In this document: piece after piece, positions 26,247 through 64,000 of the stretch
Numbering within the stretch: position 1 is the first letter of the stretch
Layout: every line of letters begins with the position of its first letter
Assembly (NCBI GenBank): GCA_050084515.1
Contig: CM114271.1
Span: forward strand, 22,072,001-22,136,000
DNA from: Blasia pusilla
Lineage: Eukaryota
DNA: 64,000 bases
Reading direction: 5' to 3'
Translations under genes and position numbers: made by a program
The notes under the pieces: model-generated
Seen by the model: the letters and a program-made list of their open reading frames with translations, nothing else
Told to the model about the DNA's origin: nothing
Databases searched by the model: none

Positions 26247-26541
26247 CATGGTTGCACAAAAACGGACATGGATGGAAAAATCTGGACATAGATTGCAAAA
26301 GATGGTGTCCACACTTGTAGTTCATGGTGGAAGGCAAGGCAAGGGAGGGCGGGGAAATAAGGGGGAAGGTAGTGAAGGTGGGATTGTGAGAGGAGGAAGA
26401 AACAAGAAAGTTCAGATCACAAAGGCAAGCATGGGGCGCGGGGGGATTAAGAAAGAAGGGGGAGATGGGGCCCATATGAATAAGTCCTTCTATAAGACAA
26501 CGTAAGTCCACGGACATGAATTTTGTCCATATGCGACCGTG
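26247..26541. mobile_element. hAT-type MITE, same subfamily as 13684-13989
   Basis: TIR CATGGTTGCA...TGCGACCGTG; 8-bp TSD ATGACACA/AGGACACA (7/8). Confidence 0.85.
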
Positions 26542-30619: not shown

Positions 30620-31800
30620 TTCCCGGTGGGCTTGGCGGGCTCAGAGGTGGGCTTGGGTGCGGGCCGCGGATACCCGGGCTCGCACAGACATGTTCGCCTC
30701 TAGGATGGATATAAGTCCGTGGATACGGACTTTTTTTGTGTGCAACCTTATGTGTAGGGCCAATGCGGGCTTAGCAAGGTTGCACGGAAACAGACTTGTC
30801 CATCCATGGGATAGATAAGCCCAAGCTGCCCATCGGGTACCCCATTCAGATTTTTTCAATATCCCGATCGTTTGCGCGGGCATGGGGTGCATGAACAGGT
30901 GTGCGAGCTACAAGACGGCACGAGCCCACAGCAAGCCCGTACAACACGAACTTGAGTACCGTAGGCGCGGCCGCACGGGCCTATCGTGGGCCATGCAACA
31001 TTGTTGGGAGTCAGACGGACTTAGTGCGAGCCTCTATGAGTCTATGGGCTTACTATGGGCTACAAAACATGTGGCGTAAAGGGACAACCGATCAGTGGAT
31101 TGGGTGCAGGCTAGTCAAGCCCGGGTCTATGTTGTGGTCCAACCAGCCAAGGTGTGGGCCGTGGGAACCCAAGCCTGCATGGACATGTCCGTCCCTAGGA
31201 TAGACATAGGTCCTAGGACACAAACTAGGCAGGCCAATAGGGGCCACACGAGATCGATGTGGGTCTGTACGCACGAAGAGCCGGTTCCATGCATGCTACA
31301 AAATGGGTGGCAAGAATGGGCAACATGTTGCTAGACTAGTTGCGTGCAGGCTAAGCCCAAGTCTACGTTGCGGGCGAGGTGGGCTCGAATGCAGACCGTT
31401 GGAATCCGCGTCCACACAAACATGTTTTTCCTAAGGACAGACATAAGGCTACATACACATACTTTGTCCGTGTGCAATCTTGCCCGTGTGATGGTTGCAC
31501 AAAAATTGACAAGTCAATCCCTTGGACGAACATGGACGGACAAGAATGGACATGTCCACTGACATGGATTGCAAGAGGTGGAACCCACACTTTATAGTTC
31601 ATGATGAAAGGTTGGGCAAGGGCAAGTGGGGGAATAAGGGAGGGAGTGGAGGTGAAGGGATGAAGAAACCGGAGAGTATGGAATACGAAGGGAAGTAGGG
31701 GGAATGAGAAAGAAGGGGAAGCTGGGGCCCATATGGACAATTCTTTCCATAAGACAGACGTAAGGCCACGGATACAAACTTTGTCCATATGCAATCTTTT
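30620..31800. mobile_element. Second cluster of hAT-type MITEs
   Basis: Multiple family termini: GTGTGCAACCTT about 30750, CAAGGTTGCACGG about 30775, GTGTGCAATCTTG about 31480, GATGGTTGCAC about 31490, ATGCAATCTT about 31797. Confidence 0.75.
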
Positions 31801-38400: not shown

Positions 38401-39250
38401 ATTTATATCTGTGGGGTCACGCGCTAACCTTTCTAATGGGAATAGCAAAGCTTGTTGGGTGATGGGGCGAAGAGCAATAGGAATGTGAGTGTAGAGTCTA
38501 GGACGAGGAAGACCTGGATGGAAAGAGCGAAGGAGATCAATTTGGCTTAACCAGGTCCAAGAAGTTGTTGTGGGGAGTGCAGTAGGAGTTGGTATCGGGT
38601 TAGGGATTGAAGGCCCATGCATGGATCGACAGTACCGCTGATGTCTTTTGATCCTATTAGGAGCAAAGTCCTTACCACAAGGTATGCAACGAACCTTTGG
38701 TATAAATGGAGAAGTAGAAGGGTTACAAGGAGAGGAGGAGGGAGGTGCAAGAGGTGGTGATGGCCGACGATGAGGGGGTAAATAGGTTGGGGAAGGAGGA
38801 AGAGGAAGAGGGGAGATTCAGGTAGAATAGATGGGAGTTGGAAGCAAGGGCATAGATGAGATATGTGGGGATGGCAAAGTAGAAGGATTTGGTAATAATG
38901 GATCAGGATTAGGCTCAATAGGACAAGGCAAAGAAGGGAGAAGAGGAGAATCCGGAAGAAATGTAGCGAGTGTAATGGGTGTATTAGCATCTGGAGGAAA
39001 ATGGCGAGATCGACGATGGGGAGGTGAGCCAGGGGGAGAGGTTACGGCTGTAGGAGGGCGTGTAAAACCAAATAAGCGAGTAGATGGAGAATCCAACTCC
39101 ATCTCTGATGACATAGAAGTAAAGGTAGGCAAGTCTCCAAAGACAAGAAAAGACATACGGAACGTGGTTTGGAAAAAGCATGAGGATAACGAACAAAGCA
39201 AAAGTAGTGGAGAGATGAAGATTAGGCAATACCGAATTTATGATTGAAAG
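35500..39250 (-). mobile_element. Near full-length RLE-type (CRE/R2-like) non-LTR retrotransposon, frameshifted
   Basis: Pro-rich N-terminus. RT motifs D.ANAFNSVSR, GTRQGDPMGG, SIADDT, VRVLGVPIG, GGVGL. Zn knuckle region (LRLGLPHP..CVCG..RCAHGGE..HD). Restriction-like endonuclease RRVDLV..LGDVVVADP..KK.SY..FIPFAVEVFG..SVALQRAQA. UTR limits uncertain. Confidence 0.92.
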
Positions 39251-40841: not shown

Positions 40842-43800
40842 TAGCACGTATGTTAGGATAGATCGACGAGATCTAGTAGAGCGCCTTCGGAGATATTGGA
40901 GGAAAACATCTGGAGGTCGAGGATGACCTACGTAGGTTATGTGGCCTCAATAGGTCATTCTCGACCTCTTGAGGCCATAGATAACCTGTAAGACCAGGTT
41001 TCCCCTTTGTTTCGGCTCATTTGGAGCCATATTGAGAAACTTACTATTTTGGGTAAGATACTATTTATGGCATAGCTGACTTTCCACTTTGAGAAGTGGC
41101 CCTTGACCCGCTACAGCAGGTCAAGAGCCAAGGAGGTGACCTGCGAGCATAGGGTACCAAGGAGAGGGCTTGGGAGAGGGAAGGGGGCATAACTCCAAGT
41201 GAGAGAGCTCTCAAGCTCATTCTCTCTTTGTTGAATCTCTTCGCATGAGGCGGCGGAGCTATGGTCCTCCTTGACTTTTGTATATAACCCAAGCCTCTCA
41301 TTAGGAGAGTGGGTTTGGTTTGACATAAGAGAGAGTGCACACCATAGAGAACTTGGTGTGAGATGTTGATAGAGATTTGTTCAATTTACAAAGAGAGAAT
41401 GCGAGAGTGAGAGAGCTTCAATGGAGGAGTTTGCTAGTCACTTACTTTTGGTGGAGGTTGGGAATCGTTCCCTATTCAGCAGCTCATGGGAGTGCTCACC
41501 GGAGCTAGAGCCGCTTGATTTTGCTATTTTCTTTGACAATTTTCGTATGGGAGAGTGCCACGCGGAAGCGTTGCCAAATTTTCATTACAAATTGAGTATG
41601 GGGACGGATTTCCCCTTACCACTGCTCTTGGTAGCACCATGTACCTCTTCAATTTCTGATTTTACACGTTTGAAGTTTTCATTGGGAGAAATCAGCGCGG
41701 AAGCGTTGGCAATTTTTTCGTAGGAGTGCAGATTGAAGGGCTGTATGACAAGCCCTGTCAGTTTTTATTGGAAGGTCGAATGAAGAAAACAATTTGAGAA
41801 GATCATACATCAAGAAGCTATGTACGCCATGGAAGAAGCGGTGCGCAATTTCATCCTCTCTGCGTGAAGTTACAACAACTTTCGTTGTGCTGCCATAGCC
41901 ACCGTTTGAAGGTATGAGTGAAATTTCCAATTTCCTTTGGTAAATATCCTTATTGGAGAGGTAGAAAAGTTAAACTGTTGGGGAGAGTGGATAGGACAAG
42001 GGCTATATGGAAGTAGGAGTGAGTGAAACAATTTTTTGGGATGTTGACCCTCAATTTTAGGGGGAATTGGTGGAGAAGCATTCCAATTGCTAATCTATCA
42101 AAAGAGGGGTAGTCAACTCACAAGCAAAAAATAGTCGAAATCCGTATTTATAGGGATGTTTTTAGTAAAGAATCAAAAAAATTGAGAGGATACGTTGTTG
42201 GGTATGCCGTACTCAATCCTACCAACGGCTTAGTGCCGACCCCCGCTACACCCGATTTCCGTCGCGTGCGCCATGCGTCCTATCTGCGTCTTCGCTCCGA
42301 GCCGTTCACCGGCTTCGCGTGAGGGCCAAGTCCCTCAAGCTACCATGTCTCCCTATTGTTGCCATTGGAATCGAGGTTTCTTGAAACTGGCAGGGAAGGA
42401 TCATTGTACCCAGTTCATCGCCGACCACAAGCTTTCGGCCGCGTGTGTTTCGATGTTGTCCATCGACCTCAGGTCCCTGCCTGCCGCTACAGCCGTGTCA
42501 AAACGTAGGCACTCGCTTTGGGCTCCGACTGGACTTTATGAGCCGACCCTACAATCTAACAGCGCTTCTGGCCTGACTGCGTGGCCGTCGCCGCGCTCTC
42601 TTTCCTGGCTTGCTACTTCGGGGTTACAGTTGTTGTCGTCCCCACGTCTTTTGTGTTTTGCCATCCCTACTACTACTTCACCACGTCCCGGTGTTTCTCC
42701 GTGACCGCTGACCCTTGGTCCTCCGTGGCCTTGTTGCTGTGGTCGCCCGCATTACTGTCAATTACTGGGGATGCGCCTGCCGCCGACTACACGGCCTAAC
42801 TGCCTGTAATTTTGTGCTTTCGTCTTTTGGTCCTCACAGCCGACCTTGCCATGTCGCCCGGCTTCTTCTTGCTGAGCCGTTCCTAGTCCACCATTAGCTA
42901 CTACGCCTGTTGCATCACCGTGGTCCGCCTAAGCTGCCGACTTGCCGTTGCTGTTGCTAGTCCGATTGCTTGGAGGTCGCCACCTTGCAACCGCGACTCA
43001 CGGACGTGGCACTATCCGATTGCCGTCAGTGGGCCCGTCCACCCGTCATCTTTTCCATCAACCTATCGCTGTTCATCACCGTTCGTGCCGTCGGCTTACT
43101 ACCATTTCTTTTTCAATGGTTGTAGGAATCCGGATGCAACCACCATTGATTGGGTGATTTAATGCCGCCATGACGCAGTTTGTTCTAGCCGTCCTTGTCA
43201 TAGTAGTTTCATCATCTAGCAAATGAGGACCGGCCATTCAACGACCATGAGTAACATTTTTGGATTGATGGGGGTCGCTATTTTCCATGTTTAGTGATTG
43301 GTAGCTGCTCGAGGACGATCGAGTACCGTGCCGTGACGCCCGTAGTTGCAACACACCGCCGATTACTGCGTCGTGCCGCTTGTGGCCGTACCTCACCGTC
43401 TCGATCGCGGAGCTGTACCATGACTTAGAGCAGAGCATATTTTGGTGTTGAGTAGGATATGTCGCATTTCATTCTTGAGTGTCGTGCCATTTGTAGCCGC
43501 AGGACCCGCATCGCACATCGAGGAGATTTGAGAATTTCAGTACCACAGAAGTACGACTTGATGATTGGAGGAGTTTGTCTTTACGACCAAGTTGGGATCA
43601 AGATTTGCAATTGCTGAGGAGCGACATCGATATTTGTTGTCAAGTTACCCAGTCTTGTCTTTTGCCCTGCATGTGTTAGGGATTTCCGAGTATTGGGTAG
43701 TTATTTGGGATATTGGGTTTTGTGCGGATGTTGAGAATATCGTTGATATATGGGTTTAGGGGATATAGACCTGTGTGGGATGTGCAGAGTTGGGGTTATG

Positions 43801-46800
43801 TTCTGTCGATGAGATGATAGGACACTAGTTGATTTGCCGCACCACGTCGCTTGTTGTAGCACAGTACACCTCTCAATGAGAGAGTATAGATTGAGTGCCG
43901 CATGTTTAGTTTGAGTGATTGAGTGACAACTTGCGAGATGATAGTAATCGCGTGAGAGGGGCACGAGGGTCATCATGGCATCCTTTAGGGAGTTTGAGAG
44001 GCAAGGTGGTGAACCTGAAAGTAGCTCTAGAGGTTTTATTTACGCTGATTGGCGCAAGGTTTCAAGGATCTCCACGTGAGGGACCACCTCGACCTCCTTA
44101 TGTGTTGTGTGCACACGAGGGGAGAGTGTAGAGGAGTTTGTTAGTGCATCACTGCACACATTGAGTGGTCCTATTAGTTGGGCGTACAAGATGGACAATC
44201 GGGGTAGAGGACCCCGTAGGTTTTTGGGTGCTTTAGGCACTATAGAGTTACACGACTTTATTGTGGAGTTTAGGGGTTGGTGTGACTCGCAACGGGGCTA
44301 GGAACTCTAGAGAGTTCAACCCGTTCACAACATGGAACGATATGTTCCAACATTTAGAGGGGGCGCCCAAGGACGATTATCATGAGTTCTCCCAGAGATA
44401 TTGTTGCGACCCTCATAACCAAACAACACCAAATAGGTGCCAAGCAGAACATCAGAACTCAAGTGGACTCACGCTGCGATGTGCTTGCTATGGAGAGGCG
44501 TTTGGAAAGGTCTCTTGGAAAAGACCAAGAGACGAAATGCGGAATAGAGTTGTGCGTTTCATGCGTTAGTGGTCGCGACTAGGAAACCTAGAACAAATGT
44601 GAGCGAAGACTTGAGATGAGTTGGGTTTTGGAAGGTTGGTTGCCAAAGAGATGAGAACCAGTTTTGGAACACGACTAGTGTTTGGGAAATTTGATTGTGT
44701 TTTCGACCATTAAGTTTGGTTCCAAGATGCGTTTGGAACAACTAAGGGCGTGTTGGAAAGCTTATCTTGAGACGCTTCCAACGCACCAAAGTTCTTTGAA
44801 AAGCATGAGTATAGACTGAGATATTGGCCGAAAACGACTGTGAGAGCAATCGGGTTGAGGGCCAATTGGAGAGGCCCGGGTGTCTTTCCCTAAATGTAGG
44901 GAACCCCGGAGATCCCCAGAATTACTAGTAAGGGAGGAGTCTCTCCAAGATATCTTGGAACACGAATCCCCACTTTGAGCACCAAACGGCATCTCAAAGG
45001 CACGGGATGGAACGGGAGTTTGGCGTTGGAACTCGAAACCCAAACCTGATCCAAGGGAGTGGACTTTGTACGCCACACTTGGATTCCAACCCAAGATTCA
45101 CTTTGTGCGAGTCTCGGTTAGGGACTCATTGGATGTCCATTGGAAATTTGGAACCGCCAGGCACAAAATGCCGTTTGAGGTTCCTAAACGGACCAGAAAG
45201 TCTGTCCCAAGTCTTGCAAGACTTGCCCGCGTTGTAAACCGTGAAACTAGGAAGGTTGAGGTTGATGAGAGACCAAGATGATAACTCGGAAAGTTAGCCG
45301 GATGATTGACCCAAGACCCGACTAACCAGAGTGCGTGTTTGGATGCAGCTTAGCGTTGAGAGTGTGACCTACTGAATGCATGCTTGCGCATGACAGATAT
45401 GCCCAAGAGATTAAGGCATGGAGACTCTACTATGACCCACATTATGTGTCATGGACTAAGCCATTTCCAGATGAGGAGGGAGAGTCAAGAGAGGCTACTT
45501 CCTCTTCCACCAGTGATGTTTTAGGAGGGATGACTCGAATTGGAGCAGTTGTATCGTCCAGTCGGGTTCGTCCTAGGTTCAACCCCATGGCTAAGTTCTT
45601 TGGAGAGTTGCAGACAAGCTACCAAGGGATACAGACGGAGAAGTTGCAGAGCATCCACGACTTCGAGAGGTGCACGGGTGAGAGTTAGCATGAGGCCTAC
45701 ACTCGCTTGCGCCAGTTGATTAGCATCACTCAGGGGTGACAGAGTCCCACGCTATCCAATCATGGTACGCGATGCTGGATCGAAACCTGCGGACACGGGA
45801 GAGGGATGGGGTGCTTCTAATGCACACCTCACCTATGTTGAGAGATGTTTTAATCACCGGTGAGAACATTGAGGGCAACATGGCGAAGGAGAGCATAGCC
45901 ACCATGGGTTCTGGGCGAGAGCAGTCACGATTGCCTATACCACCAATGGAACAACGTGGATTTTGAGAGAGGCTTGTGGCACCACGAGAGAGGATATCGG
46001 GAGGTCGTGCCACAGAGACCTCTTCTTTCATATGCGGCAGTTGTCGGTCCGTGTGGGCCTAGAGGTCGTGCACCAAGTGGTCCTATTGGAGGACAAGGAG
46101 TTAGATTTTCCCGTGGAGAAGGTAGAGTTGCGCCACCTAGACGCATGGAGGGAGATGCCGGGCGTGAGGCTGGGTAGGCTGCTCAAATACAATAGCAGAT
46201 TTCCGCTATGGCATTGAGGTTATCTGATGCTGAATCCGTGGCATCGACGTCTTTTGGAGCAACCGGAGATATGGAGGCTCTTGGCTCGATGTGCGCGACT
46301 GTCTAGTAGGAGGGAGCCACTGTTGCTACACGTGGAACGTCCGTAGAGTTGGATCCATAAAGAGGGGAAGCCAGGAAATAGACCAGGCTTCCTCAGTCTT
46401 TCACCTTGTCCGAGGAGATGAGGACCCCATCGATGGGTCCTGATTAGAGTTCCCTTAGAGTTGATGTTGTTGGCACGGAGGGAGATGGGAGAAGCGAGTA
46501 CGAAAACTCCTATTGCTGATGCTCTAGAGGAGCATGTGTTGAGTATGATGTTGAGGGCGGCCATGATGGTGTATCATGATCCGCTCTTTTCTGCTTCTGA
46601 TGTTATGACGTTGGGAGGTACACCCGCAGAGACTTTTCGGCTGGCTGCTATGCTATGTGAGTGTGGAGATGGTGTTCTTGCATCACATTCAAAGGTGATT
46701 GCAGAGGAGGTGATGGACCTGCCCTTGGAGCCAATGCTCGGGCCGTCCACGTCAAATTCATGGCAGGTTGCGGCTGCTAGGATGGCGGAGATGCCCGCTA

Positions 46801-48280
46801 GATCCGCTATAGAATGTGCCATGGTTGCTGCAGGTGTTGTGTTGCTGGATAACCGAGGAGAGATCTTAGAGTTGGTGAGTCAAGGAGGTAGATTTTTTTC
46901 TCCACAACGTGTCTTGTTAGATTCAGGAGCGCAACCTTAGCCGCATTAGGCATCGCCATCATATAGCCTTATGACTTGATTGAGGGGCATGTCCATGCAA
47001 AGAACATCTCCTCGCGTGACACTTGTAGGGAGAGGAGTGTTATGGTAGCCGCATCATTCCGTGGAGGAGAGGTATCATTGTGGGGCTCAAGTGAGTAGCT
47101 CCAACGCTTGGTAGATGAGCACGTGCAGATGGCGTGGAGTCACGCGTTTGCACCAGAGCGTGACAAAGGTGCAAACACGTGAATCCTGGCTACCTCGGAG
47201 AGGAACCCGAGGTAGCCGGGGAGTGCTACTATGACCCCTTTGGACACCACCGTACCCTGATCCTGTGGCGCATCCTAGAGGAGGGTATTTGCGTGTTGGA
47301 TCTCTTAAGAAGTATCAGCATTGGCTTAGCTGCTGTTTTGCAGGGACAAGTGCGTGTGCAAGAGGACTTGTATGTTGAGATTGATGATGTTGCGAGGCGC
47401 ATTTCACTTCACCATGTGGTGCAATTACGCCTCTGATTTCCCAAATTTTTGTGTGCGTCCGTCGTCTAGGGATTCCAGAGTTTCCTACCAAGGGACATTT
47501 CATTGTTGGGGGCGCAGGACTTGGAGCGGGCAGGGACCATAGATTTGGTCATTGCTAGTTGGTGGAGCCCAATGCCGATGAGTGAGAGCGAGCGATGGGA
47601 TTCTCCACAAGAGTGATGGCAGTACCATCAATATCAAAGGCATCACGACATCATATCTTGGGTCAGGCAAAGGACTTGAACTACTTCACATGGATTTTCA
47701 GCTTAAGAGTAGCTCAACAACATTGTTTGAGGAACTGTTGCGTTGGTGAGCCCCATGCCTATTGAGATATTCGAGGCATTGGTTGGAGGTGAGACTCGAG
47801 GAGATCGACACACTAGGAGTGATTGGTAGAGACACCCTTGAACTTGGGATGTTTTGAAGGTACGTCGGGAGATTATAGCTATAGCATCAAGCGTGGTTCC
47901 GGATACTGCACGTGGAGAAGATGAGATGAGAAGTTGCAATTGGTTGTAGGAGAGCATTCAAGTTCTACTGTCTGAGATAGAGTTGCACCATAGCAATCAT
48001 CAACACCCGCGCTGGAGAGTTCTACCGTAGTCACGATGGAGACTTGGGAGCCAGATATGGGCCTTAAGTTGACAAAAGGAGAGCAGCGGCGGATACATCA
48101 GTTCCTTAGGAGTTTTAGGATTTTCTTTGCATTTAGCATGCATGATCTGGGTATGCTAAAGGGTATAGGGATCCGCATTGAGTTCTTAAGCGACACGCCG
48201 ATCTTTCGACGACCCTACAGGTATAGTGACATGGAGAGGGCTTTGATTGAGAGTAGGAGCCAGGACTTGGTTGGAGCAGT
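40842..48280 (+). mobile_element. Gypsy-DNMT element D (5' part: LTR, leader, gag, protease, DNMT remnant, start of RT), interrupted at 48281
   Basis: LTR about 40842-41390 ending TTTACA. Gag about 44180-46200. Protease VLLDSGAQ about 46910. DNMT motifs at 47280-47620. RT start PIFRRPYRYSDMER about 48200. Colinear with elements at 50022 and 60986. Confidence 0.88.
44402..45395. mobile_element. Solo LTR (994 bp) inserted in the gag of element D
   Basis: TGTTGCG...CATGACA ends; perfect 5-bp TSD GATAT (44397-44401, 45396-45400). Removing it restores gag as seen uninterrupted at about 63500. Confidence 0.9.
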
Positions 48281-50021
48281 TGTTGTGCACATACAGATCG
48301 CTACACAACATACATTGCTTTCACCAAACATACACACAAACACGCATGATCCCAAGCTAACTCATGGCATCCAAACAATAAGACAAGAAGTACTAAAATA
48401 TCTCAAATCAATCGAGTCGATCTCTAATCAACATCTCACACCAAGCTCTCCATGGTATGCACTCTCTCTCTCATGTCAAACCAAACCCTTTCTCCTAATG
48501 AGAGGTTTGGGTTACATACACAAGGCAAGGAGGACCATAGCTAAAAAGTTACCACGAATTTCAAATTTAGCTCCTTCCTCACGCAGTGGCTATGGCAACT
48601 CCACAAAAATGATCATAATTTCTTGCTCCCATGTTCAAATTGTGCACTATTTCTTCCACAACGTGCATAGCTTCCCGATCTACAATAGCGTTAAATCAAC
48701 TTCTTCATACAACCTTCCAAAAAAAAAAACTGACAGGGATTGTCGTGCAACCCTTCAATCTGCACTCCCACAAAAAATTCAGCAAGGCTTCCGCGCTGAT
48801 TTCTCCCAACAAAAATTGCAAACCTATAAACACAACAACCAACAAGCTACAAGGTACTCTTGAGAGCACCAACATGGGGAAAATAGCCCCCATACTCAAT
48901 TTGTAACAAAATTTTGGCAACGCTTCCGCGTGTCACCCTCTTGTACGAAAAATCAGCAAAGGAATCAACAAAATTGAGCGGCTCTTGCTCGGGTGAGCAG
49001 TGCCATGAACCGCTGAACAGGGAATATGATCCCCAACCTGCAACAAGAGCGAGTGACCAGCAAGCTCCCCCATTGAAAATCTCTTTGTAAATCAAGTAGA
49101 TCTCTCATCAACATCTCACACCAAGCTCTCCATGGTATGCACTCTCTCTCATGTCAAACCAAACCCACTTTCCTAATGAGAGGCTTAGGTTACACACAAA
49201 AGGCAAGGAGGACCATAGCTTTGCCGCCTCATGCCAAGAGGTTCAACAAAGTGAGAATGAGGTCTAAAGCTCTCTCTTGGAGGTATACTCCCTTCCCTCT
49301 CTCAAGTTCTCTCCTCAGTAACCTATGCTTGCAGGTCACCTCCTTGGCTCTTGACCTGTTATAGCGGGTCAAGGGCCACTTCCCAAACAAGAAAGTCAAC
49401 TATACTCCAAATAGAAACTTACCCGAAATAGTGAGTTTCTCTATATGGCTCCAAATGAGCAGAAACAAAGGAAAAACCTTCTCTATGAGGTTACCCATGG
49501 CCTCAGGAGGTCATCCTCAACCTCCTGAGGGTTGTCTTGTAGTATCTTCGAAGGCGCTCTACTAGATCTTGCCGATCTATCCTAAAAGTTGTGACAAGTG
49601 TCCTACGCATACACATCGCTACACAACATACATCGCTGTCACCAAACATACACTCAAACACACACGATCCCATGCTAACTCATGGCATCCAAACAACGCG
49701 ACAAGAAGTCCCCCTAGATGGTGGTTAGGTCCCTCTAATTCCAGATAGCCATCTATCCCTACCTACAATGACATACATCTCTCAGACGCTAAGATAAAAA
49801 AAGTCGGGTGCCCAAGTGGCCCTATCCTTAGTCGCCTTCTTGTCACAGACAGAAGTCAAAATCTAGAACTACCTGCTCTATGTACATCTGGGACACATCC
49901 ATCATCCCTCAGGAACCCTAGTGAGAGATGGCGTCAAACATGCCATATGCAATCCTCTCGAACATCCATCACAGACTAGCATAGTGACTGCACCACGGGC
50001 CAAACCACACAACATACATCT
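48281..50021 (-). mobile_element. Gypsy-DNMT family element C, 3' end (PHD finger, PPT, B-A-...-B' repeats)
   Basis: PHD CMLCGLARGAVTMLVCDGCSRGLHMACLTPSLTRVPEG*WMCPRC at 50018-49884; PPT at 49717-49704; B 49703-49599; A 49596-49086; B' 48385-48281. Confidence 0.88.
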
Positions 50022-50389
50022 TGTCATGACCATACGGATTATGTCGTAGAGTATAGTGTGCTAGTAGAGGCCATACCTTATGTAGGGCCGTAGTGTCTAG
50101 GTAGAGATGCAGGTTCATACATAGGGTTGGGGGTTACTCCGTTGAGGGTGAATTTTCCAGTAGGGCCTGCTCTTAGGTTGGAGGATATAGTGTGGAGTGC
50201 ACTCAAAGAACAGTTAGTTCTTTGAGTTGAGCTTGTTGCGTTGGGAGTTAGCCTTGGTAGTGAGTAGAGCTCTTGGCTATGGTGGTTCCCGCAAGCTTCG
50301 ACCTCGATTCTCCCATCGTGGAGTGGGTTTGGCTCGATTGTATGTGATTCTATACGTATTTTATAACAATAGGTCTTTCATGGGTTTCA
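50022..50389 (+). repeat. A repeat (5' LTR-like), 368 bp
   Basis: TG...CA; direct repeat of 59243-59610 with about 17 mismatches counted by eye (about 95% identity). Confidence 0.95.
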
Positions 50390-53300
50390 CTCAAAGAAGT
50401 GGAATAGATCGATAGTACCTTCGATCGTGGATCAGTAGGATCTGGTTAGGGTTGATTGTGTACTCAGTAGTGGATGTTCATGGCTTTTGGCCTATGTTGG
50501 AGGTGTGAATCTAGTGCATGGTTGTTTGGGAAAGAATCGCCTTGCTAAGAGCTTTCCAACGCGCTTTAGATCCGCGGATTTTGTCAAGGGAGTTGGAAGT
50601 TATTAAGGATTGAAGATTCTGGTTCGTGTTCGACGGTTTTATGATTTAGAGAGCTTGGAGTGCGGAAGCTCTGTTGAAGTTCATCCAGATCGGGTGAGAG
50701 GTTCCTATTGCTACGTGTATTGTGATCTCATGTGAAGTTATCTGCTTGAGTGTGTGGAGCGTTGTGGATTTCTGTGTGCATGAATCTGGGCGGAAGCGAT
50801 GTTGGATTTGCAATTCTAGAGGTGTATGGACATCAAGTTTGTCTCATATTTAGCTTGGAGTATAGAGCTCGGTTGTAGCTGATTTTTTTATGGAGAGATA
50901 ACTATGGCGGCCAATTAAATTCTGGTTGAAACAGATTCAATTTTGGTTGAGGATTTATGGAGAAATTGTTGATCGAATTTTGCGGACTAGCTCAAGGTGG
51001 ACAACAGATCGGAGGGTCTGGTTGGTTTGTGACTCGTCCGTTGTTAGAGACGCCTATCTCGTTGGGAGCGCCCTGGTTGGGCATCTCTCCATAGCAAAGC
51101 ATGGCGAATGGGGCATGTCTCGAGCATCTCTTGTCGTTTGAGGCTTCGAGGCACCTCGTGGTAGCTTGGGACGAGTGGGCGTGAGAGGTGGAGTAAGGAG
51201 TAAGGAGCAAGGAGCAAGCAATCAAGCTTGCTTGCTTGGGCGTGAGGCAATTTTTGCAGGATTTGTGAGTTGAGTGTTGCATAACTGGTCACCCATCTTT
51301 GGGCTATTCTGCTTGGAAGACGCTTAACGGCTGAGTTCTTAACTATGTCAGTGTACACACTGGTGTAGCTCATTTGGTGTTGTTCAGAGATGTGTTAGGC
51401 GCTTTATGCATCTCACGTTTTTGGTTGATGTACCTCTAGCGCATAGTACGGTGTAGCCTCTCCATGCAGGTGATATTTTCACGTGCTGCGAGTGCGACTA
51501 GCACGTCATCGACCAGCGGCAGAGTAGCTATTGCGTTAGAATTTTGTGGTGGAATCTGTGGATTCAGAGGGTGCCACATTTGGTGGACTGTGTTACCTTG
51601 ATTTCCATTTGCGATCGGAGGGTTGTCGTTGGACTTCTTGTGTTCGGATCCCCTCCATCGTTGCTTCTTGCTTGCGCGCCCATTGTTAGGATTGACCTTG
51701 ATTTCCAAAGTAGTTTTACTCGTGTGTGCTACCGGTAGTGAGGCTGGAGTGATGACCAGTAGACCGTGGGAGGCTTCTTGTGGTGATGACATGTTAGGTT
51801 GCCCATAGCTAGTAGAGCTAGAATAGTACAGCGACATCAACATCACTTGGTTACTTAGTGGTGGTGATTTGGTGGTGGTGTGGCATCGACGTTGGTCATC
51901 ACGGAGCTATTTGGTGGTCTGGTTGGGGACCGTGGTACGGGCAGTGGTGGTTTTACATGGAGTGGATTGAGGTATCGGCTACCTTTTCCACTTCCGACGG
52001 TTGATGAAGAGGAGGACGAGGGTGTTCCAAACACCGAGTCTTTTACCTTGTTATCGAGTGTTGCAGCTCCATTGATTTGGGACATGGACGGGATATATGG
52101 GACCATGAAGGGCCCACCACGATACTCGAGTGCAGTGGGCACCATTGAGTTGGAGGACTTCATTCAATAGTTTGATACGTGGTGTGATATGCTAATGTTG
52201 CGGAACACCACGTTGTTTACACCCTTCTTGGCTTGGAAGGGGTTGTTCCAGCACTTGGAGGGACCACCCATGGACAATTACCATGAGTTAAGGAGGGACC
52301 ATGTTGGTGAGATTGAGGCGTGGAGACAATATTGGTCTCCAGGCTATGTGTCTATCACCCATGGTGGTATTGGTAGTAGTGCTCCTACTGTGTCAGCCAA
52401 TTTGACCTTGAGTAGTACAAGTACGAGCCGGAGTGGAGGTACCACTGGGGGTACTAGTGCTCCACCATCGTTCAGCCGGGTTGCAGAGTTCTTCAAGAGG
52501 TTGACGAAGAACTATCAGGGAGTGAAGATAGAGAAGTTGAGGAATCTTCAAGAATTTGAGCGAAAGACAGGTGAGAGACTTCGTGAGGCATACACTCATA
52601 TGACGCTTGATTTCAGTTACCTAGGGTGTGACTAAGGCTCAGGTAGTCTAGTTTTGGTATGGGATCTTGGACAAAGAGTTGCGCCGTAGGGTATGTGATG
52701 CTACTCTTATGAGTGATGATTCACCCACATTGGCCAATGTGTTTGCTCTATCTGAGAAGATTGAGCTTAACATGGTGGAGGAGAGAGTGGTGACATCCGC
52801 ATTCACTAGGGATACAACTACTACTTCTCGTGTTCAGCAGTCCACCTCACAGTCTCGTAGTGGTGATGGTGGTAGTAGTAGTGGGAGTCGTGGGGGGTAC
52901 ACACGACCTCAGTTAGGTCCTAGAGGGACACTTGCGCAGAGACCATTGCCTTCATTTGCTGCCCCGCAGCAAGGACAATCATGTTGGACATGTGGAGGTG
53001 ATCATGTCAGGAGGTTTTGTCTCCAAGAGGATGGGAGACGGACTTTGGAGGATGGGCCTCAGTCAGCCCCAACTCAGTGTGACCAAGTCATCCTCGAGAG
53101 CGTTGCTTTGATCTTCATCCAGAGTTGAGATCAGGCCGCGGACGTGGTGGAGTAGCTCCGAGAGGCCGAGGTGGTAGAGGTGGTAGGGATGGTAGAGGTG
53201 GACGAGCGGTTGGAGAGCCTATGGTGGCTATCCCTACCACTACGACAGTAGTCACTATGGTGCCGAGATTGAGCTTGATTGGAGCAGAGGTTGGCTACTA

Positions 53301-54714
53301 TGGTCGGTATCCAAAGATAGAGTAGGTTCCGGAGCGGGGCTTCCACCTCTTATGGAGGGAATGATCTCTCTTATATGGCAAGTGCAAAGACAAAGTTGAG
53401 GCATCGATTGCGATTACGAGAGGAGCCACTCGAGCGTTAGAGCCACGTGGTGCTACTGTGGAGTTGGACCCACAGAGGGGTGAGGCTGGGAGGCAGGCTA
53501 GGCTTCCCCAATCATTCTTGTTGTCTAGGGTGCTTAGGACTCCATCCATGGCTCCTACGCAGTCTATTGAGCCTACAGTGGGGACTAAGGTATCTACATC
53601 GCGTTTAGTAGACATAGATGCAGCATCCAGTGTAGTATTGCAGATGGCAACTTCAGTGTTGGGATCCCCATTATTTTCAGCCACTGAGTTGATGGCCTTA
53701 GGAGTTGACTTAGCTCGTGTATTTCAGCTAGCAGCCACGTTGTGTGAACGTGGGAGTATTACTTCTACACGTGCTGAGGTGGATGAGGGTGTTGCGGTGG
53801 AGAAACCCTCTATGTTAGGTGTAGCATTGAGTACCAGTGCTACTTGGCAGGCAACAGCGGCGAAGATGGATGCATTACCAGCCCGGCCAGCCATTGATTG
53901 TGAGAGGCTTACACTTGGTGTATGTATGTTGGACAATTGGAGTGGGTTATTCCGATTGGTGAGTCCTACAAGACAGGTGTATAGACCAGATAGAGTCTTG
54001 TTAGACTCTGGTGCCCAACCTTTGATGTTGGGAAAGGCAGCATGTATTGGTTTGGGTATTCGGAGGTCAAAGCTTGAGCCTTGCCCAATCCAGATTCAGA
54101 CATCACTTGGAGGAGCCAATGATAGGTCTGATTTCATGACATGGGAGAAGTTTTCTGTACAATTGAGACCATATCATGCGAGTGATAGCTCCTGGTTGGG
54201 AGTACCTGCAGTGGTCACATCAGCCGAGTCGCATGATGTACTAGTTGGAGGAGCAGTATTGTACTCGATGGGTTTTCAGATGGACTACTGAACTGAGACA
54301 ACGTCTTATAGACCTGGTTGGCAGTTTGGGGATGGACGTATGAGCCAGGTTCCTCTGAGATTTATTTATGGGGCTCGACCAGGAGGGTCTTCCCCAATGG
54401 TGTTAGCATCTGTGGCTGGTTTTTGTGGAGTAGTCACTTGGCCAGGAGACTTTTTGGAGGGCAACCTTTCTGCTATGGATTCTCCTATGCATGAGGAGGT
54501 AGAGGAGGTCCCTAGTTTTGCAGCAGTGGTATCCTCATCGTTGGATGTGCCACTTTGGAGTTCAGGCGGTGCCCTACGACAGGAGGTTGATTGCCTAGTG
54601 GAGGAGGCTTGGTGTGAGGCTGTTATACCTCACGAGGAAGAGGAGGCTCCGGCAGACTCCTACTTCTGGTCCTGTTGGGTTATACTACACCCATTGTATG
54701 GCAGTATCAGCTAG

Positions 54715-55570
54715 AGGGCATTTGTGTGTTAGATCTCTTTGATGGGATTAGCATTGGTTTGGCTGCAGTGTTGCAGGCCGCTATTCCTTTGCGGAGATAC
54801 GTGTATGTGGAGCGAGATGAGACGGCCCAGAGAGTCTCATCCCGACATATTGGTCAGTTGATGCGGAGATATCTTGAGTTGTTGCCGCCATCAGCTATTC
54901 GTGGGTATCAGCGTGCTTTGCCGTCACACATTGCATTGTCGTAACACCCGTAACATCTCCCAAAACAATCGAGACCTAGGTCTCGATTGTTTTGGGAGAT
55001 GTTACGGGTGTTACGACATCTTCAGGTTCATCAGGCACGTGCTCCAGCTTATATTCGAGAGAATGTTCCATTGTTGGGTGACACTCGGACCCGGATGATG
55101 GCGAGTGTTCATGAGGTTGGATTGGACCAGCCGTGTTGTTGGATGCAGTGCGAGTTGGCTCACGTGCACATCGTCCACGCTTGTGGTGGACAAACTTGTT
55201 GCCTAGGGAGGTTCTACGTTGAGCATATGATGCAGTGCAATGGGATCCTTGGCTTACAGTGGATAGTATCTTGGATACTGGGCGACTTTCTTAGGTGGTG
55301 AGGGTTATTGATCAGTCACCCATCATAGTGGTGAACTGTGTGGGCCAGCCTAGGATGGCACTACCCACATTTGTGAGTTTTCCCTCGTCACATGCCTAGA
55401 GGGAAGATGGTCCCGGGCTTGTATGGGATTCTCATGTGCGACAGTTGGTGGAGCCTAACGCTGATGAGAGAGAGCGTGCAATGGGATTTGCTACTCGTGT
55501 GACAACGATTGCTTCCATTTCTGAGGCTTCACGACGTCATGTGTTGGGTCAGGCCATGGACCTGATTTTT
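54715..55570 (+). pseudogene. Retrotransposon-encoded DNMT3-like C5 cytosine methyltransferase domain (disrupted)
   Basis: ICVLDLFDGISIG (motif I), YVYVERD (II), RSRLFWEMLRVL..ENVP (V-VI), PAVLLDAVRVGSRAHRPRLWWTNLLP (VII-VIII), ERERAMGF...RRHVLGQAM (IX-X). Motif IV is missing; frameshifts and stops present. Confidence 0.9.
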
Positions 55571-55869
55571 TTACCTCGATTTTGAGTCTTGGTATGGCCG
55601 AGCAGCGTCGACTTCGGACTATGTCTATGGGTCTTCCACCCCTTGTGATGAGCTCGATGGCTACCGGGCCGGTAGAGACATCGGCTGGGGTCGAGGAGAA
55701 CAGTATTTTGCATCCTTGGAGTAAATGGGATGTTATGGCTGGGCATGTGGAGTTGGTTGCTCATGCTGGTGGAGGAGTTACTTGCTCAGATGATGGTGTA
55801 GCTAAGTGTGTACCATCTTGTAAGGGAGTTGCATAGCAGCCAATGGTGTCTTCCTCTCCCTCTAGTGTG

Positions 55870-58800
55870 CTAGTGGAGGAGACTTGGGAGCCATTACTTG
55901 GGCCCAAGCTTACGGAAGGTGAGAAACGACGCTTGACATAGTTCCTACGTGCTTATAGCAGTTGTTTTGCCTTTAGCATGAAGGAGTTGGGTGCTTTGGT
56001 TGGACCCGATATACGGATTGATTTGGCTAGTGATACACCAATCTTTTGTCGTCCCTACCGATATAGTGATATGGAGAGGGACCTGATTCAGAGTAGGACG
56101 TTGGACCTTTTAGAGGCAGGATTAGTGGAGTTGTTGCATGGAGAGTATGCATCAGCCACTGTCATGCCTGCTAAAAAGGATGTGCATGGCAACTACACAG
56201 ATAGGCGGATGTGTGGAGATTACCGTCCTATCAATCCGTAGACCAAGGTCGATAGGTATGCCATGCCTACACTTGAGGAGATCATTGATGTGGTGGGACC
56301 GGCAAAGATTTTCAGTACTTTGGATCTTCGAGCAGGATACCATCAGTTGCCGATTCGAGAGAGTGACAAGGCCAAGACAACATTTTGGGGTGTCAACTCT
56401 CATGGCAAGGATTGTTTGTACCAGTGGAAATTCTTACCCTTTGGGTTGAAGAATGCACCTGCCGAGTTTGAGAGAGTGATGGACAGGATCCTAGCAGGGT
56501 TGGATTTGGTTCGGTGTTACATTGATGATATCTTGGTGTTTAGTAACACAGTGGAGGAGCATCAGATACATTTGCAAATTGTGTTTGAGCGGTTGAAAGC
56601 TCATGGTCTATGTTTGCCATTCAGGAAAGTATAAGTTCTTCCTTAAGGATATTGAGTACTCGGGTCATGTGATCTATCCAGATGGTTTGGGAGTTCAGCA
56701 AGCAAAGGTGGAGGCTATTGCACTTATTCCTTGTCCGGTAGATGTGAGTAGAGTTGGGGCATTCATAGGATTGACGAACTACTATCGGAGGTATGTGAAG
56801 GGATTTAGTGCTATGGCAAAGCCTTTGAACCAATTGTTGAAATCAGATCAGGAGTGGTACTGGGAAGATGATCAGGAGAGAGCTTTTGTGGAGCTCAAGG
56901 CCCACTTGGTGGCGGCGCCTATCTTGAGGAGACCTATCAGAGGGCGCCCATTTCAATTACACACTGGTTGGAGTAGGTTGGGGCTTGGAGCGGTGTCGAC
57001 ACAACATGATGATGAGCACATGGAGTTTGTCGTGGCCTATGCAAGTCGTTCGAATAATGCAGCGGAGTCCCGCTATAGTTCATATGAGGGAGAGTGCTTG
57101 GCAATAGTGTGGGTTGTGGCACACTTTAGGTGTTACTTGTTTGGCTCATAGTTTACCCTTGTTATTGATCACCAGCCGCTCAAGTGGTTGATGGAGTCTG
57201 ACAAGCTTACAGGGAAGCTTGCACGGTGGGCTCTTATCTTACAGGAGTATAATTTCCAAGTGGTACATAGACGTGGAGTTGCCAACCTTGATGCTGATAG
57301 GTTGAGTAGGAACCCATATACTAGCCAAGAGGATGCAACTCGGGCTAGATGCCATGGCGAGGGTGATGAGGAGATTGTGCCAGGTTGGCATGCATCTGCC
57401 TTTTTATGTTGGTTACGGGTGGACTCTAGTATGGAGGACCACATGACATCTTACTCTAGTGAGAGGGTATATGGCCAGCCTTCAGATGCTAAGGTTGGAT
57501 ATGATATTCATGATGATGCGTTGGTGTTGGAGTTCCTACGGACTTGTAGGGTGCCAGACATAGTGGGTGCCAAGGAGCGAGACCGTGTTCTTCAACGTGC
57601 TAAGAGGTATCGATTGGAGGGAACACATATTCTCCGTGTGTGGGAGGATGGTAGAGTACGAGTAGTGCCACATTTGGCTCAAAGAGAGCACATTGTGCGA
57701 CATGCCCATGAGGAGTTGGGACATTTTGGGGTAAAGCGTATATATAGCTTACTCCTTGGTCAATATTGGTGGCGTGGCATGCATACTGAGGTGCAGCAAT
57801 TGGTGTCACATTGTATGGTTTGTGACCGGGTGAGGGCATCACTCAATGCCCCTTCACCACAGTTACACCCCTTGCCTATTATGGGGTTGGGTTACCGTTG
57901 GAGTGTGGACTTTGCGGGACCGTTACCGTAGTCGTTGATTGTACGACATCATCGATATGTGTTGGTGATGGGGGAGCACTTCTTCAAGTGGATTGAGTTG
58001 GTGGCATTACCTGACAAGGCAAGTGAGGGAACGGCGTATGCCTTAGAGTTCTTTCTTGATAGAGTGCTTAGTCATTTTGGTGCACTAGCTGAAGTGCTGA
58101 CCGACCAAGGTACAGAGTTTCAAGGTGAGTTTCAGGTCTTGTGTGACAAGGCGTTGATTGATCATCGGACCACGTCTCGAGATCATCCAGAGGCGGATGG
58201 TTTGGCTGAGCGTGTGTTTCAAACGATAAAGAGGGCATTGCGCATGTATGGCCTACATAAGGGGCATCTTGGAGATAAAGAATATTCAGTTGCCATGGTT
58301 AGGCATAGGATATAGGTTCAGTCGCCAAGCATCCTTGGCTTCCTTCTCACCTTATTTTTTGTTATACGGCCGAAATCCAGATTTTCTTGCGGCAATTCGT
58401 GAGGAGTCTACAAAGGTGGTGAACCTTGACGATCCACAGATATGGATGAGAGTGTATTCTCAGCGGGCAGACCTCTTTCGGAGAGTTATGCCAACAACCT
58501 TTGAGAATCTTGCCATTGCTCAACACAAGGATACGTTTCTGTATGCAACCATTCGGGGTGGAGGTTATCGACCATCGATTTTTAGGTTCCATGTGGGGGA
58601 CTATGTCTATTTGCAGCAGATTGCACCAACAATGTTGGATGTGACTGCAAGCCGCACTATTTTACGAGTGCGCGAGGTGTTAGCTTCTTGAGTTCTCATG
58701 TTGAAGGGTCGTGATGGAGTTGTTTAGAAGGACCGTGTGCGTAATTGTGCGCCATGTCATCTTCCAAATATGGATGGTAATGTTGACCCAAGCTTAGCCA

Positions 58801-58970
58801 TGATACGTGCTAGCTTGAGGTGCATGTTGTGTGGGTCTGTTGGTAACGCAGCCCGTATGTTGGTGTGTGATCGGTGTTCTAGGGGTTGACACATGATATG
58901 TTTGACTCCACGTATGGATGTTGTTCCTACTGGAAGGTGGATTTGTCCTCGATGTACTAAGGAGAGGTAG
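55870..58970 (+). pseudogene. Gypsy RT-RNaseH-integrase-PHD coding region, with stops and frameshifts
   Basis: ORF pieces 55978-56241, 56263-56634, 56603-57151, 57188-57931, 57935-58315, 58248-58691 in Gypsy domain order; PHD at 58821-58955. Confidence 0.95.
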
Positions 58971-59136
58971 ATGACATGATCTTTGCATGATATGGATTAC
59001 AGATGTGCGACTTACGATGGGGCAACCCAGCACCCGACCTTCTGATTCGTGCACCCACGAAGGTGTATAGCATGTAGTAGATGTATAGGGCTACCTGGGA
59101 GTTAGAGGGACCTAACCGCCAATTAGGGGGGCGAGT

Positions 59137-59715
59137 TGTGATACACTTGTGTTTGTGGATGCTCTCGTCTATGTTATGTATGAATGCGAGTATGGTATGT
59201 CAGCGATGTCTTTTGTATGACGATGTGGATTCGCACGACAGTTGTCATGACCATACGGATTATGTCGTAGAGTATAGTGTGCTAGTAGAGGCCATACCTT
59301 ATGTAGGGCCGTAGTGTCTAGGTAGAGACGCGCGTTCATACATAGGGTTGGGGGTTACTCCGTTGAGGGTGACTTTTCCAATAGGGCCCGCTCTTAGGTT
59401 GGAGGATATAGTATGGAGTAAACTCAAAGAACAATTAGTTCTTTGAGTTGAGCTTGTTGCGTTGGGAGTTAGCCTTGGTAGTGAGTAGAGCTCTTGGCTA
59501 TGGTGGTTCCCGCAAGCGTCGACCTGGATTCTCCCATCGTGGAGTGGGTTTGGCTCGATTGTATGTGATTCTATACGTATTTTATGATAGTAGATCTTTC
59601 ACGGGTTTCAGTTGTCGTACACTTGTGTATGTGGATGCTCTCGTCTATGTTATGTATGTATGTGAGTATGGTATGTCAGCGATGTAGTTGTATGACGATG
59701 TGGATTCGCACGACA
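59137..59715 (+). repeat. 3' terminal B-A-B' repeat block after the PPT
   Basis: PPT AGGGGGG at 59125-59131; B1 59137-59240; GT; A2 59243-59610; GT; B2 59613-59715; each unit TG...CA. Confidence 0.95.
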
Positions 59716-60985
59716 ATCGTAAGCGTGCACGAGTTACTGCTAAGCTTGGATTAACTATACCGTTAATGTTAGGAAGGTGACATGGCGCACACTTACGCAC
59801 ATGGTCCTTCCAAACCATACCATTGCGTCCACACTATATCCAATAAGGGAACACTAGATGGAAAAATCTCATGCACTCTTAAGATGGTGCGTCCTTCAAT
59901 CACATCCAACATTATGGGTGCTGTCTGTTGCAAGTAGACATAGTCTCCCTCTGAGTGAAACCTCTGGATAGGTTGATAGCCACCTCCCCAAAAAGTCGCA
60001 TACATTAACATATCCCGATGTTGCGCAATCACCAAATTCTCAAACACCATGGGCATCACTCTCCAAAACAACTCAGCCTTCTGAGAACATGCTCGCATCC
60101 ATACATCAGGATCATCAAGGTTTAACACCTCACCAATATTTCGACGAATGACCACAGGTAAATCTGGCTCTCAGCCATAAAGTAGCAAGTACGGTGAGAA
60201 AGACGCTAAGGATGCTTGCTTGCTGAATCTGTATCCCATCGCCAAACACGGCAACTGGAGGTCCCAATCTCCTAGGTGATCTCTCTGCAAGCCATACTTA
60301 CGCAATCCTCTCTTCATTGTTTGCACAACCCTCTTTGCTAGTCCATCCGCCTCAAGATGATCTTGCAAAGTGGTGTGGTGGTCCATCAATGCCTAATCAC
60401 AAAAGGTCTGAAACTCCCCGCGAAACTCCGTACCTTGGTTTGTCAACACCTCAGTTGGTGCGCCGTAATGACTCAACACTTGATCTAGGAAGGCAAACGC
60501 TACTCCCTTACTCGCTTTTTCATCCAATGCAAGCAACTCTATCCACTTCCAGAAGTGCTCGACCATCACCAACACATAACGACTATGGAGCTCCGTCAAA
60601 GGTAAAGGTTCTGCAAAATCCAAACTCCATCTATAACCTAAATCCATGATCAAAATTGGATGCAACTGTGGAGTCGGAGCATTGAATGATGCCCGGACCC
60701 AATCACACACCATGCACCTAGCAACAAACTGTTGAACGTCAGTCTGCATGCCTCGCTACCAATATTGTATCTAAAGCAAGTTGTACGTCCGCTTCACTCC
60801 AAAATGACAAAAATCCTCGTGACACACCAAACTTGCTGTCTGTGAAGGATTAGGCACTACATCTACTCTATCATCCTCCAAAACCTCCAACATATGCATC
60901 CCCTCCCACCAGAACCGTTTGGCTCGTTGTAGGATCAGATCCCGCTCTCTAGCACCCACTATCCTCTCAACGCTGCCTATATGCA
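59716..60985 (-). mobile_element. Element C integrase segment; continues into 50021 downward, interrupted at 60986 by element E
   Basis: Minus-strand ORFs CHFGVKRTY, CMVCD, WSLDFAEP, TNQGTEF, ADGLAKR, GDYVYLQQ are homologous to 57700-58800. Confidence 0.92.
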
Positions 60986-63900: not shown

Positions 63901-64000
63901 GGGTGCGGGAGAGGGTGCTTCTGATGAACACCTCCCCTACTTTGAGAGATGTTCTTAGGACCACCAAGAACATTGAGTGCAACATGGCGGAGGAGAGCGT
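60986..64000 (+). mobile_element. Gypsy-DNMT family element E, 5' part (LTR, leader, gag), running off the window
   Basis: LTR TGTCACG...TTTACA at 60986-61488; 62420-64000 aligns with 43290-45900 of element D (gag FLEFRGGAHG/EVEAWQLYYDP region). Confidence 0.9.

Follow-up and report, generated by a model that had tools for sequence, protein, structure and literature searches.

A Ty3/gypsy family of Blasia pusilla with split repeats and a sequence signature of joined cDNA ends

An abundant plant family of Ty3/gypsy elements is built in the order A-PBS-internal-PPT-B-NN-A-B', with TG..CA ends and 4-bp target-site duplications (TSDs). It is likely that the replicative LTR of this family is B-NN-A, that its integrase sites lie inside that LTR, and that the ends of its cDNA are joined to each other. 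Retroviruses and their relatives are not usually credited with joining their cDNA ends and then inserting from an internal cut. The segment at 48281-49717 of the window (the 64,000-bp stretch of DNA analysed here, G000:C1:22072001-22136000, in a surrounding assembly of 390 Mb and 26 contigs) is the 3' end of a nested and decayed old copy of the family, referred to below as the focal element.

The initial annotation had held the architecture to be conserved rather than a one-off duplication, and family-wide this is what is found: B-NN-A-B' is present in 21 of the 30 loci of a first search (40 of 10,922 candidates scored), which also holds the focal copy and eight 5' ends starting at A, and in 24 of 30 loci picked by PPT|B alone. 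(Within the latter sample 27 loci run into A and 24 of these into B'; of the other three, one retains little of B and two stop at B.) Exact motif matches in the assembly number 607 for B|NN|A, 313 for A|B, 454 for A|PBS and 969 for PPT|B, with 0 matches to reversed-motif controls. A second family (family 2, that of the focal element being family 1) shares the layout in 19 of 20 loci and has 535 exact B|NN|A matches, so that the exact motif matches of the two families amount to at least 969 plus 535. Ordinary LTR pairs in most copies had been named as the observation that would speak against the layout; there are none in the 68 5' ends with a visible A start (27 of 30 and 41 of 60 among the 90 A|PBS loci examined), B standing before A in 0 of 68. 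Tandem B-A-PBS junctions are absent from the same 68 5' ends (samples from contig C1).

Eighteen of the loci picked by PPT|B were examined upstream and 12 could be paired end to end. An exact 4-bp TSD flanks 10 of these 12, and a 5-bp TSD is rejected, the exact 5-bp register being found in 0 of 12. Nine further pairs comprise four with exact TSDs, three with one mismatch, the focal element with two, and one that does not match. Because 4-bp TSDs flank them, the first bases of A and the last of B' are the ends that were integrated. Metagenome loci extend the comparison (the best 80 were kept and 66 examined, of which 12 are too short; several are the same insertion in different records): 21 of the 54 usable loci have B..B' after the integrase and 33 do not, and one locus, L193, is complete, with TSD CATA/CATA. 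Of the loci lacking the repeat, 24 were inspected (two of them being among the too-short ones), and 11 stop at a complete B, A being absent.

Other arrangements also occur. Solo A-B units with 4-bp TSDs (exact or with one mismatch) are found at G000:C1:22148077-22148551 and at L053, L059, L062, L067, L071, L075, L085, L274, L277, L279, L281, L283 and L295, and a further one, L076, has no matching TSD. These units are the counterparts of solo LTRs and could have arisen by A-by-A recombination or as directly integrated mini units. Copies ending at B without A-B' are seen at L124 (G000:C1:874780; an A-internal-B copy with an exact TSD), L173, L183, L187, L194, L207, L213 and L248, and commonly in metagenome loci; they would be products either of B-by-B' recombination or of a 1-LTR circle opened at the palindrome. 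Near-identical loci that share flanks or junctions (L083 and L084 at G000:C1:41357239 and 45098241, and five matches on C13 and C24) suggest segmental duplication or redundant contigs. Further families share only the 3' 45 bp of B (L040:3163-3208, L043, and the sequence upstream of L127, namely L160).

All of the pieces that the initial annotation named in the focal element are present where it placed them, on the - strand (Table 1). A is found from 49596 onward as annotated, but its end lies near 49089, not 49086; the "PBS relic" that follows it, ACAAAGAG, is a decayed self-priming PBS. B' (48385-48281) matches B (49703-49599) at 90% over 102 bp (BLAST, E 3e-33) or 91/105 in global alignment. 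The hexamer that reappears before B' does not bear the meaning given to it as a sign of ligation: ACTTCT is what a 20-nt deletion left of B, not a spacer. In other 3' ends B is about 22 bases longer at its start and abuts the PPT; the focal B has lost 20 nt there, and the focal B' retains those 20 nt (48408-48386). B and A had been described as unlike those of the 50-kb element. This is true of A, which cannot be aligned, but the B repeats of the two elements agree at about 80% over their 3' 58 bp.

Table 1. Features of the focal element and of the elements nested around it
Feature	Position	Strand	Remark
Right TSD copy, ACTG	48277-48280	-	flanks of host pol frame
Left TSD copy, CTTG	G000:C1:22156047-22156050		outside the window
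B', terminal copy of B, full 127 bp	48281-48408	-	ends ..ACA, the right integrated end
ACTTCT within full-length B', before 48385	48391-48386	-	
Partial A (A 377-509)	48409-48542	-	91% to A 377-509; its end joins B' at the putative cDNA end-to-end junction
Copy of PBS and about 545 bp of 5' leader	48543-49088	-	
Decayed self-priming PBS	49080-49088	-	complement of 49246-49261
A repeat, about 508 bp	49089-49596	-	starts TGTCAC
Putative self-primer segment within A	49246-49261	-	putative transcript start
2-nt spacer CT	49597-49598	-	between B end (..GACA) and A start (TGTC..); putative decayed centre of GACA-GC-TGTC
B without 20 nt at its start	49599-49709	-	ACTTCT hexamer left beside PPT
ACTTCT after PPT	49709-49704	-	
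Polypurine tract remnant	49710-49715	-	G-run 49714-49710
C-terminal PHD finger of focal integrase	49884-50021	-	tblastn with P0011 residues 1469-1513
Integrase core of focal element	59721-60962	-	past the family-2 insertion; rve E 4.8e-08
Host family-1 element, 5' part	40842-48276	+	pol entered by focal element; B-A-B' end at window-equivalent 87930-88695
Inserted family-2 element ("50-kb element")	50022-59715	+	gag-PR-MTase-like-RT-RH-IN-PHD; TSD ATCT/ATCG
Repeats of the family-2 element	A 50022-50388; PBS 50389-50398; B 59134-59240; GT; A 59243-59609; B' 59610-59715	+	
Second inserted family-1 element, 5' part in window	60986-64000	+	runs to window-equivalent 70314; TSD TGCA/TGCA
Solo A-B unit splitting focal element	window-equivalent 76077-76551		

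The focal element is also not the independent element that it had been taken for; it lies nested within the pol of a sister copy, and at least three later insertions have split it. The nest was mapped over the window plus 30 kb: the host family-1 element spans 40842 to window-equivalent 88695 (+), and the focal element 84046 to 48281 (-), its 5' end lying about 20 kb past the window with the 5' A at G000:C1:22156046-22155536. The host pol frame resumes on both sides of the focal element (...DLVGA on one flank, RLVEMLHGE... on the other), and the TSD copies there differ in two of their four bases (CTTG vs ACTG). Stops and frameshifts break all copies in the nest. Loose read ends do have B ahead of the family-2 A start and host pol running on at 48279. 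The methyltransferase-like region of the family-2 element contains a perfect 82-bp palindrome at 54937-55018, probably a fold-back, its second half matching ordinary element sequence in other copies. Elsewhere in the window, broken non-LTR retrotransposon-like frames occupy 35523-39247 (-), in which RT motifs can be made out by eye and, after them, a cysteine/histidine knuckle and a stretch resembling PD..D, features reminiscent of the restriction-like-endonuclease clades of non-LTR retrotransposons; a decayed inverted-repeat (MITE-like) family is found at 13685-14217, 26262-26538, 31491-31798 and 14715-15020, its members being 65-74% alike.

The boundaries of the repeats are also those of reverse transcription. 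The PPT, at which B begins, primes the plus strand in standard reverse transcription. A ends at what in sequence matches a self-priming site of the Tf1 type (PMC6317226): the PBS 16-mer can pair with a site in the element's own A, some 160 nt upstream, with at most 3 mismatches in 22 of 30 copies as against 2 of 300 control 16-mers, and in 63 of 90 loci of a larger sample. Family 2 (10 nt) and metagenome locus L193 (16 nt) have PBS/A pairs of their own, different in sequence and identical in arrangement. For one copy the predicted fold contains exactly this helix (z -2.5; the piece was cut so as to start at the helix). Priming by tRNA is rejected, since the self-complement begins at the A end; there is no tRNA gene in the 64-kb window. 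With B starting at the PPT and A ending at the PBS, the cDNA would run from the start of B to the end of A, and A|B' would then be the join of its two ends.

The initial annotation had proposed precisely this, that at A|B' the left end of the cDNA is ligated to its right end, and two further features speak for it: remnants of the PPT and of the primer occur at the junction, and B' tracks its own B. Most A|B' junctions are clean. Among 70 counted by hand about 14 have an extra A, one has a PPT remnant and one has AC. The pattern of A end plus G-run has 23 matches, 18 of them an A end before a G-run (a PPT remnant) and five the ordinary PPT|B; among these 18 are five identical ones and a duplicated pair. 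Twelve matches to this pattern were examined, and nine are an A end with a PPT remnant, eight of the nine having B-A upstream. Junctions with a PBS remnant of 3-17 nt give 22 matches (the remnant patterns are limited to gaps of 16 and 18 nt, longer remnants being outside their reach); the 10 examined are three full 3' ends, five solo A-B units with at most one TSD mismatch, and two of unclear kind. In the sample picked on PPT|B alone, 3 of 24 junctions have remnants.

The distance between B and B' in family 1 is 0.099 within elements vs 0.129 between them (46 ends; 0 of 10,000 permutations), with B1-B1 at 0.127, B2-B2 at 0.129 and B1-B2 of different elements at 0.129; yet in only 10 of 46 cases is the nearest sequence of all the element's own B'. 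In family 2 the corresponding values are 0.036 and 0.060 (19 ends). From these sequences the A|B' join looks to be remade in each cycle.

Some junctions hold longer pieces. At L134 (G000:C1:4763197), A is followed by about 210 bp of pre-PPT sequence, the PPT and B'. This arrangement is compatible with plus-strand priming at a site before the PPT, or with conversion that overshot. In 4 of 90 loci the PBS runs on into the reverse complement of the part of A that lies upstream of the primer site; such fold-backs are seen at L119, L124, L293, L295, L322 and L343, and at L295 the fold-back is directly followed by B, with an exact TSD. This fits retention of a longer self-primer, but fold-back during DNA repair fits too.

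The end of B (..GACA) and the start of A (TGTC..) stand two bases apart. In the first 100 rows of family 2, counted by hand, these two bases (NN) are GC in 44, AC in 24, GT in 20, AT in 6 and other in 6; in the first 100 rows of family 1 they are AC in 39, GT in 23, GC in 12, AT in 12 and other in 14. Family 2 is the younger, and copies with a GC spacer have the closest B and B' (0.05, n=5, vs about 0.10). Most likely, B|NN|A descends from a palindrome, GACA-GC-TGTC, that supplies the integrated ends by its halves and decays at its centre by methyl-cytosine loss; such loss does not fully account for the excess in family 1 of AC and GT over GC and AT. An origin of NN from host flanks, or its renewal in each cycle, is rejected: the spacer lacks tree signal (25 changes against a shuffled mean of 23.7, with only 8 of 42 branches strongly supported), yet methyl-cytosine decay of GC fits better. 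A staggered cut after each CA yields the usual processed ends of an integrase, as established in retroviral chemistry. The mirror form A-B-NN-A-internal-B was looked for in 68 5' ends and 30 A|B loci and found in none. An asymmetry is needed, because a symmetric 2-LTR circle should open at the other palindrome too, which would give this mirror form. The length of B is 105-127 bp in each of the three families, that of A anywhere between about 280 and 1050 bp, suggesting that the palindrome to be cut may be selected by its distance from the left end.

A replication cycle can be proposed along these lines. Transcription would start in the 5' A, and the first ~16 nt of the transcript would fold onto the PBS and prime the minus strand, as in Tf1. 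With a PPT-primed plus strand, standard reverse transcription would generate the linear form [B-NN-A]-PBS-internal-PPT-[B-NN-A], whose ends are without TG..CA. The A of its right end would be joined to the B of its left end, usually cleanly and sometimes with leftover PPT, primer copy or filler; the junctions carry the signature of such a join, the process itself being what we infer from it. The DDE integrase would then cut the PBS-proximal GACA-GC-TGTC, leaving CA-3' ends with 2-nt overhangs and generating the 4-bp TSD, and the product would be A-internal-PPT-B-NN-A-B'. Joining might precede integration (as a circle or a dimer) or follow it (through host repair of two free ends), and insertions cannot tell these apart. 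We lean, less firmly, toward a generalization, that there is a streptophyte clade of DDE-integrase LTR retrotransposons in which end-joining of cDNA is obligatory in each cycle and the palindromic sites lie some 105-127 bp from the left end.

The A|B' junction might instead have been made once and inherited through an RNA that includes B'. The clean joins of most copies, and the enrichment of PPT remnants in one A-end subfamily, five of them identical, are what such inheritance would give, but B and B' form no separate lineages (0.127, 0.129 and 0.129, vs 0.099 within elements), remnant lengths vary, and the join sits at each family's own PBS and PPT boundaries even though A cannot be aligned between families; we regard a single inherited junction as improbable. 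More improbable still is an ordinary LTR element in which B-A-B' and the remnants arose after insertion, by local duplication or gene conversion. The remnants could indeed stem from post-insertion conversion from PPT-B or A-PBS, the solo A-B units and the A-internal-B copy with its exact TSD hint that recombination among repeats may be common, and L134 and the focal copy contain long extra pieces. This origin is nevertheless largely refuted by the position of the TSDs, outside the A start and the B' end (exact in 10 of 12), by the lack of ordinary LTR pairs in 68 5' ends, and by the recurrence of B-A-B' in 24 of 30 PPT-chosen loci, 19 of 20 family-2 loci and 21 of 54 metagenome loci.

A tyrosine-recombinase element of the PAT/Ngaro type, or a gypsy element mobilised in trans by such a recombinase, would have the same A1-B1-A2-B2 layout (PMC4157794, PMC8969392). 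This is hardly credible here: a DDE integrase core is present, the ~170 bp between PHD and PPT are too little for a recombinase there, and the ends are TG..CA with 4-bp TSDs, while elements of DIRS order are described as having no TSDs (PMC8969392).

The extra A-leader piece of the focal copy is a one-off, of little interest alone. Its leader copy is 88% identical to the element's own 5' leader, with a common short deletion after the PBS; the join from leader to partial A has a 2-bp microhomology (AG), and an exact 19-nt search of the genome for this junction gives one match, the focal copy itself. The focal duplicates are 87-96% alike (leader 88%, A 1-376 88%, B/B' 87%). The extra piece is probably about as old as the insertion, since divergence of the leader equals that of A 1-376 and is near that of B/B'. 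The retained A piece, 377-509, lies wholly within the putative strong-stop segment, and so one early jump into the leader would explain the extra piece in a single event: minus strong-stop DNA would jump early, at A377, into the leader, recopy leader and A, and then transfer normally. Such a mis-jump of reverse transcription is the most likely source within this reading, at somewhat short of even chances.

The "deleted tandem unit" of the initial annotation is still a candidate and no longer the sole reading, tandem B-A-PBS being found in 0 of 68 5' ends and the junction being unique; a mis-jump fits at least as well. A head-to-tail dimer (A-int-BA-int-BAB) that lost about 10 kb of its second unit has in its favour that leader-to-A deletions occur (L077) and that pre-integration recombinants have been proposed for rice (10.1101/452573), but it needs two events, lacks the tandem junctions that would attest it in those 5' ends, and has against it the position of the A piece wholly inside the putative strong-stop segment; it is possible, though on the unlikely side. 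Early gene conversion is rather less likely than that, and divergence dating cannot separate it from mis-jump or tandem-plus-deletion. That the focal copy is an artefact of assembly is very unlikely. Among the matches listed from three raw DNA runs and one contig set (mostly other family copies), no read or contig spans the leader|A join, and most leader bins have a depth of about 0-4 reads per strand, one bin reaching 22; against this, the duplicated pieces are 9-13% diverged, which collapse would not yield, and the nested structure is coherent, with TSDs.

The proteins are those of Ty3/gypsy. Pfam domains of the 50-kb copy follow the order RVT_1, RT_RNaseH, Integrase_H2C2, rve (7 of the 12 frames scanned are without a match, and none matches a recombinase), and tblastn finds the same PR-RT-RH-IN order in the focal copy, with a DDE integrase; the protease call rests on an LDSG motif. 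The best solved relative of protein P0011 is Ty3. Pol ends in a C-terminal PHD motif and a stop, with no chromodomain there; PF00628 is found in 119 of 120 homologs among the matches listed (of 361), no chromodomain family being among them. Focal 73068-72319 (window-equivalent) is 34% identical to the PF00145 region of P0011, and the methyltransferase-like fragment of the window has no Pfam match and only non-significant DRM/DNMT3A matches (E 0.25-0.9). Among the matches listed, the closest named pol relative is that of Coleochaete scutata (70%), and PHD-bearing homologs, some with methyltransferase, reach chlorophytes; no Klebsormidium-named protein is among the best 120 of 361 homolog matches, nor in a further four. 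Two pol relatives labelled cyanobacterial or spirochaete proteins in public sources (P0151, P0102) are probably eukaryotic contamination of metagenome bins.

Set against the usual marks of Ty3/gypsy elements, TG..CA ends and a TSD within 4-6 bp are present (10 of 12 exact; the focal copy with 2 mismatches), and two equivalent LTRs are not, the 5' repeat being without B (0 of 68) and the 3' end being B-NN-A-B'. The family has the split direct repeats of PAT/Ngaro without their tyrosine recombinase or their lack of TSDs, the self-priming PBS of Tf1/sushi-Tcn1 (by sequence complementarity) without a C-terminal chromodomain, and the A-coding-B-A-B layout with gypsy domains of a KnitGypsy-Dnmt3-like element. 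A circular intermediate has been proposed for PAT/TOC/Ngaro/VIPER elements.

The layout is already in print, in one legend line of 2018 on KnitGypsy-Dnmt3 of Klebsormidium (PMC5890265). The mechanistic signature appears to be undescribed; its support, which is good, comes from sequence and not from experiment: in the literature open to search (which leaves Repbase and most subscription titles outside), no published TSDs, self-priming, palindrome or end-joining were found for such elements, nor any paper using the name "Tandem-o-LTR". Whether 2-LTR circles are precursors of integration is a long-running question in retrovirology, with PMC1180852 arguing for a precursor role in foamy virus and PMC5314604 calling them a dead end. 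If the proposed cycle is right, each insertion fossilises a junction of the 2-LTR-circle type, and the family is a natural system, numbering thousands of copies, where joined molecules serve as productive intermediates and not as a dead end. It would make the question directly readable, every insertion keeping its joined ends, and hundreds of junctions would record primer removal and end repair. It would also provide a way for split direct repeats to evolve with no tyrosine recombinase involved. LTR-finding programs whose criteria are TG..CA LTR pairs and flanking TSDs (as in PMC6317226) would miss these elements.

KnitGypsy-Dnmt3 of Klebsormidium nitens (de Mendoza et al. 2018, PMC5890265), compared by description, is alike in combining gypsy domains with a DIRS-type layout (repeats of DIRS type with gypsy domains in the legend of Fig. 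4c; A-coding-B-A-B spelled out for SymbioDIRS in that of Fig. 1), and its pol carries a cytosine methyltransferase to which the methyltransferase-like region found here may correspond; it differs in that section 9 of the paper gives no TSD, PBS, junction or mechanism. Tf1/sushi elements and the plant Tcn1 chromoviruses share the self-priming PBS right after the 5' repeat and the Ty3/gypsy domain order, but have ordinary TG..CA LTR pairs and a chromodomain in place of the PHD finger and split repeats found here (PMC6317226). Gypsy-7a_cRei of Chlamydomonas is likewise a PHD-bearing gypsy of the green lineage, but has two LTRs, the left without its last 8 bp, and its description states no split layout (10.1101/2022.06.16.496473); the Chlamydomonas "LTR subparts" were rejected as split repeats, the term there meaning 5' and 3' LTR (PMC8969392). 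Troyka, a gypsy-like element with unusual ends, was rejected on its CG..CG termini, 3-bp TSD and occurrence in animals only (PMC12440569). PAT, TOC, Ngaro and VIPER elements have the A1-internal-B1-A2-B2 layout, but with a tyrosine recombinase and no TSD where the present family has a DDE integrase and 4-bp TSDs (PMC4157794, PMC8969392). In foamy virus, integrase cuts the palindromic att-att junction of a 2-LTR circle to yield processed ends, and that palindrome is the ligated junction; in the present family the palindrome lies inside the LTR, and the ligated junction lies elsewhere and is kept in the insertion (PMC1180852).
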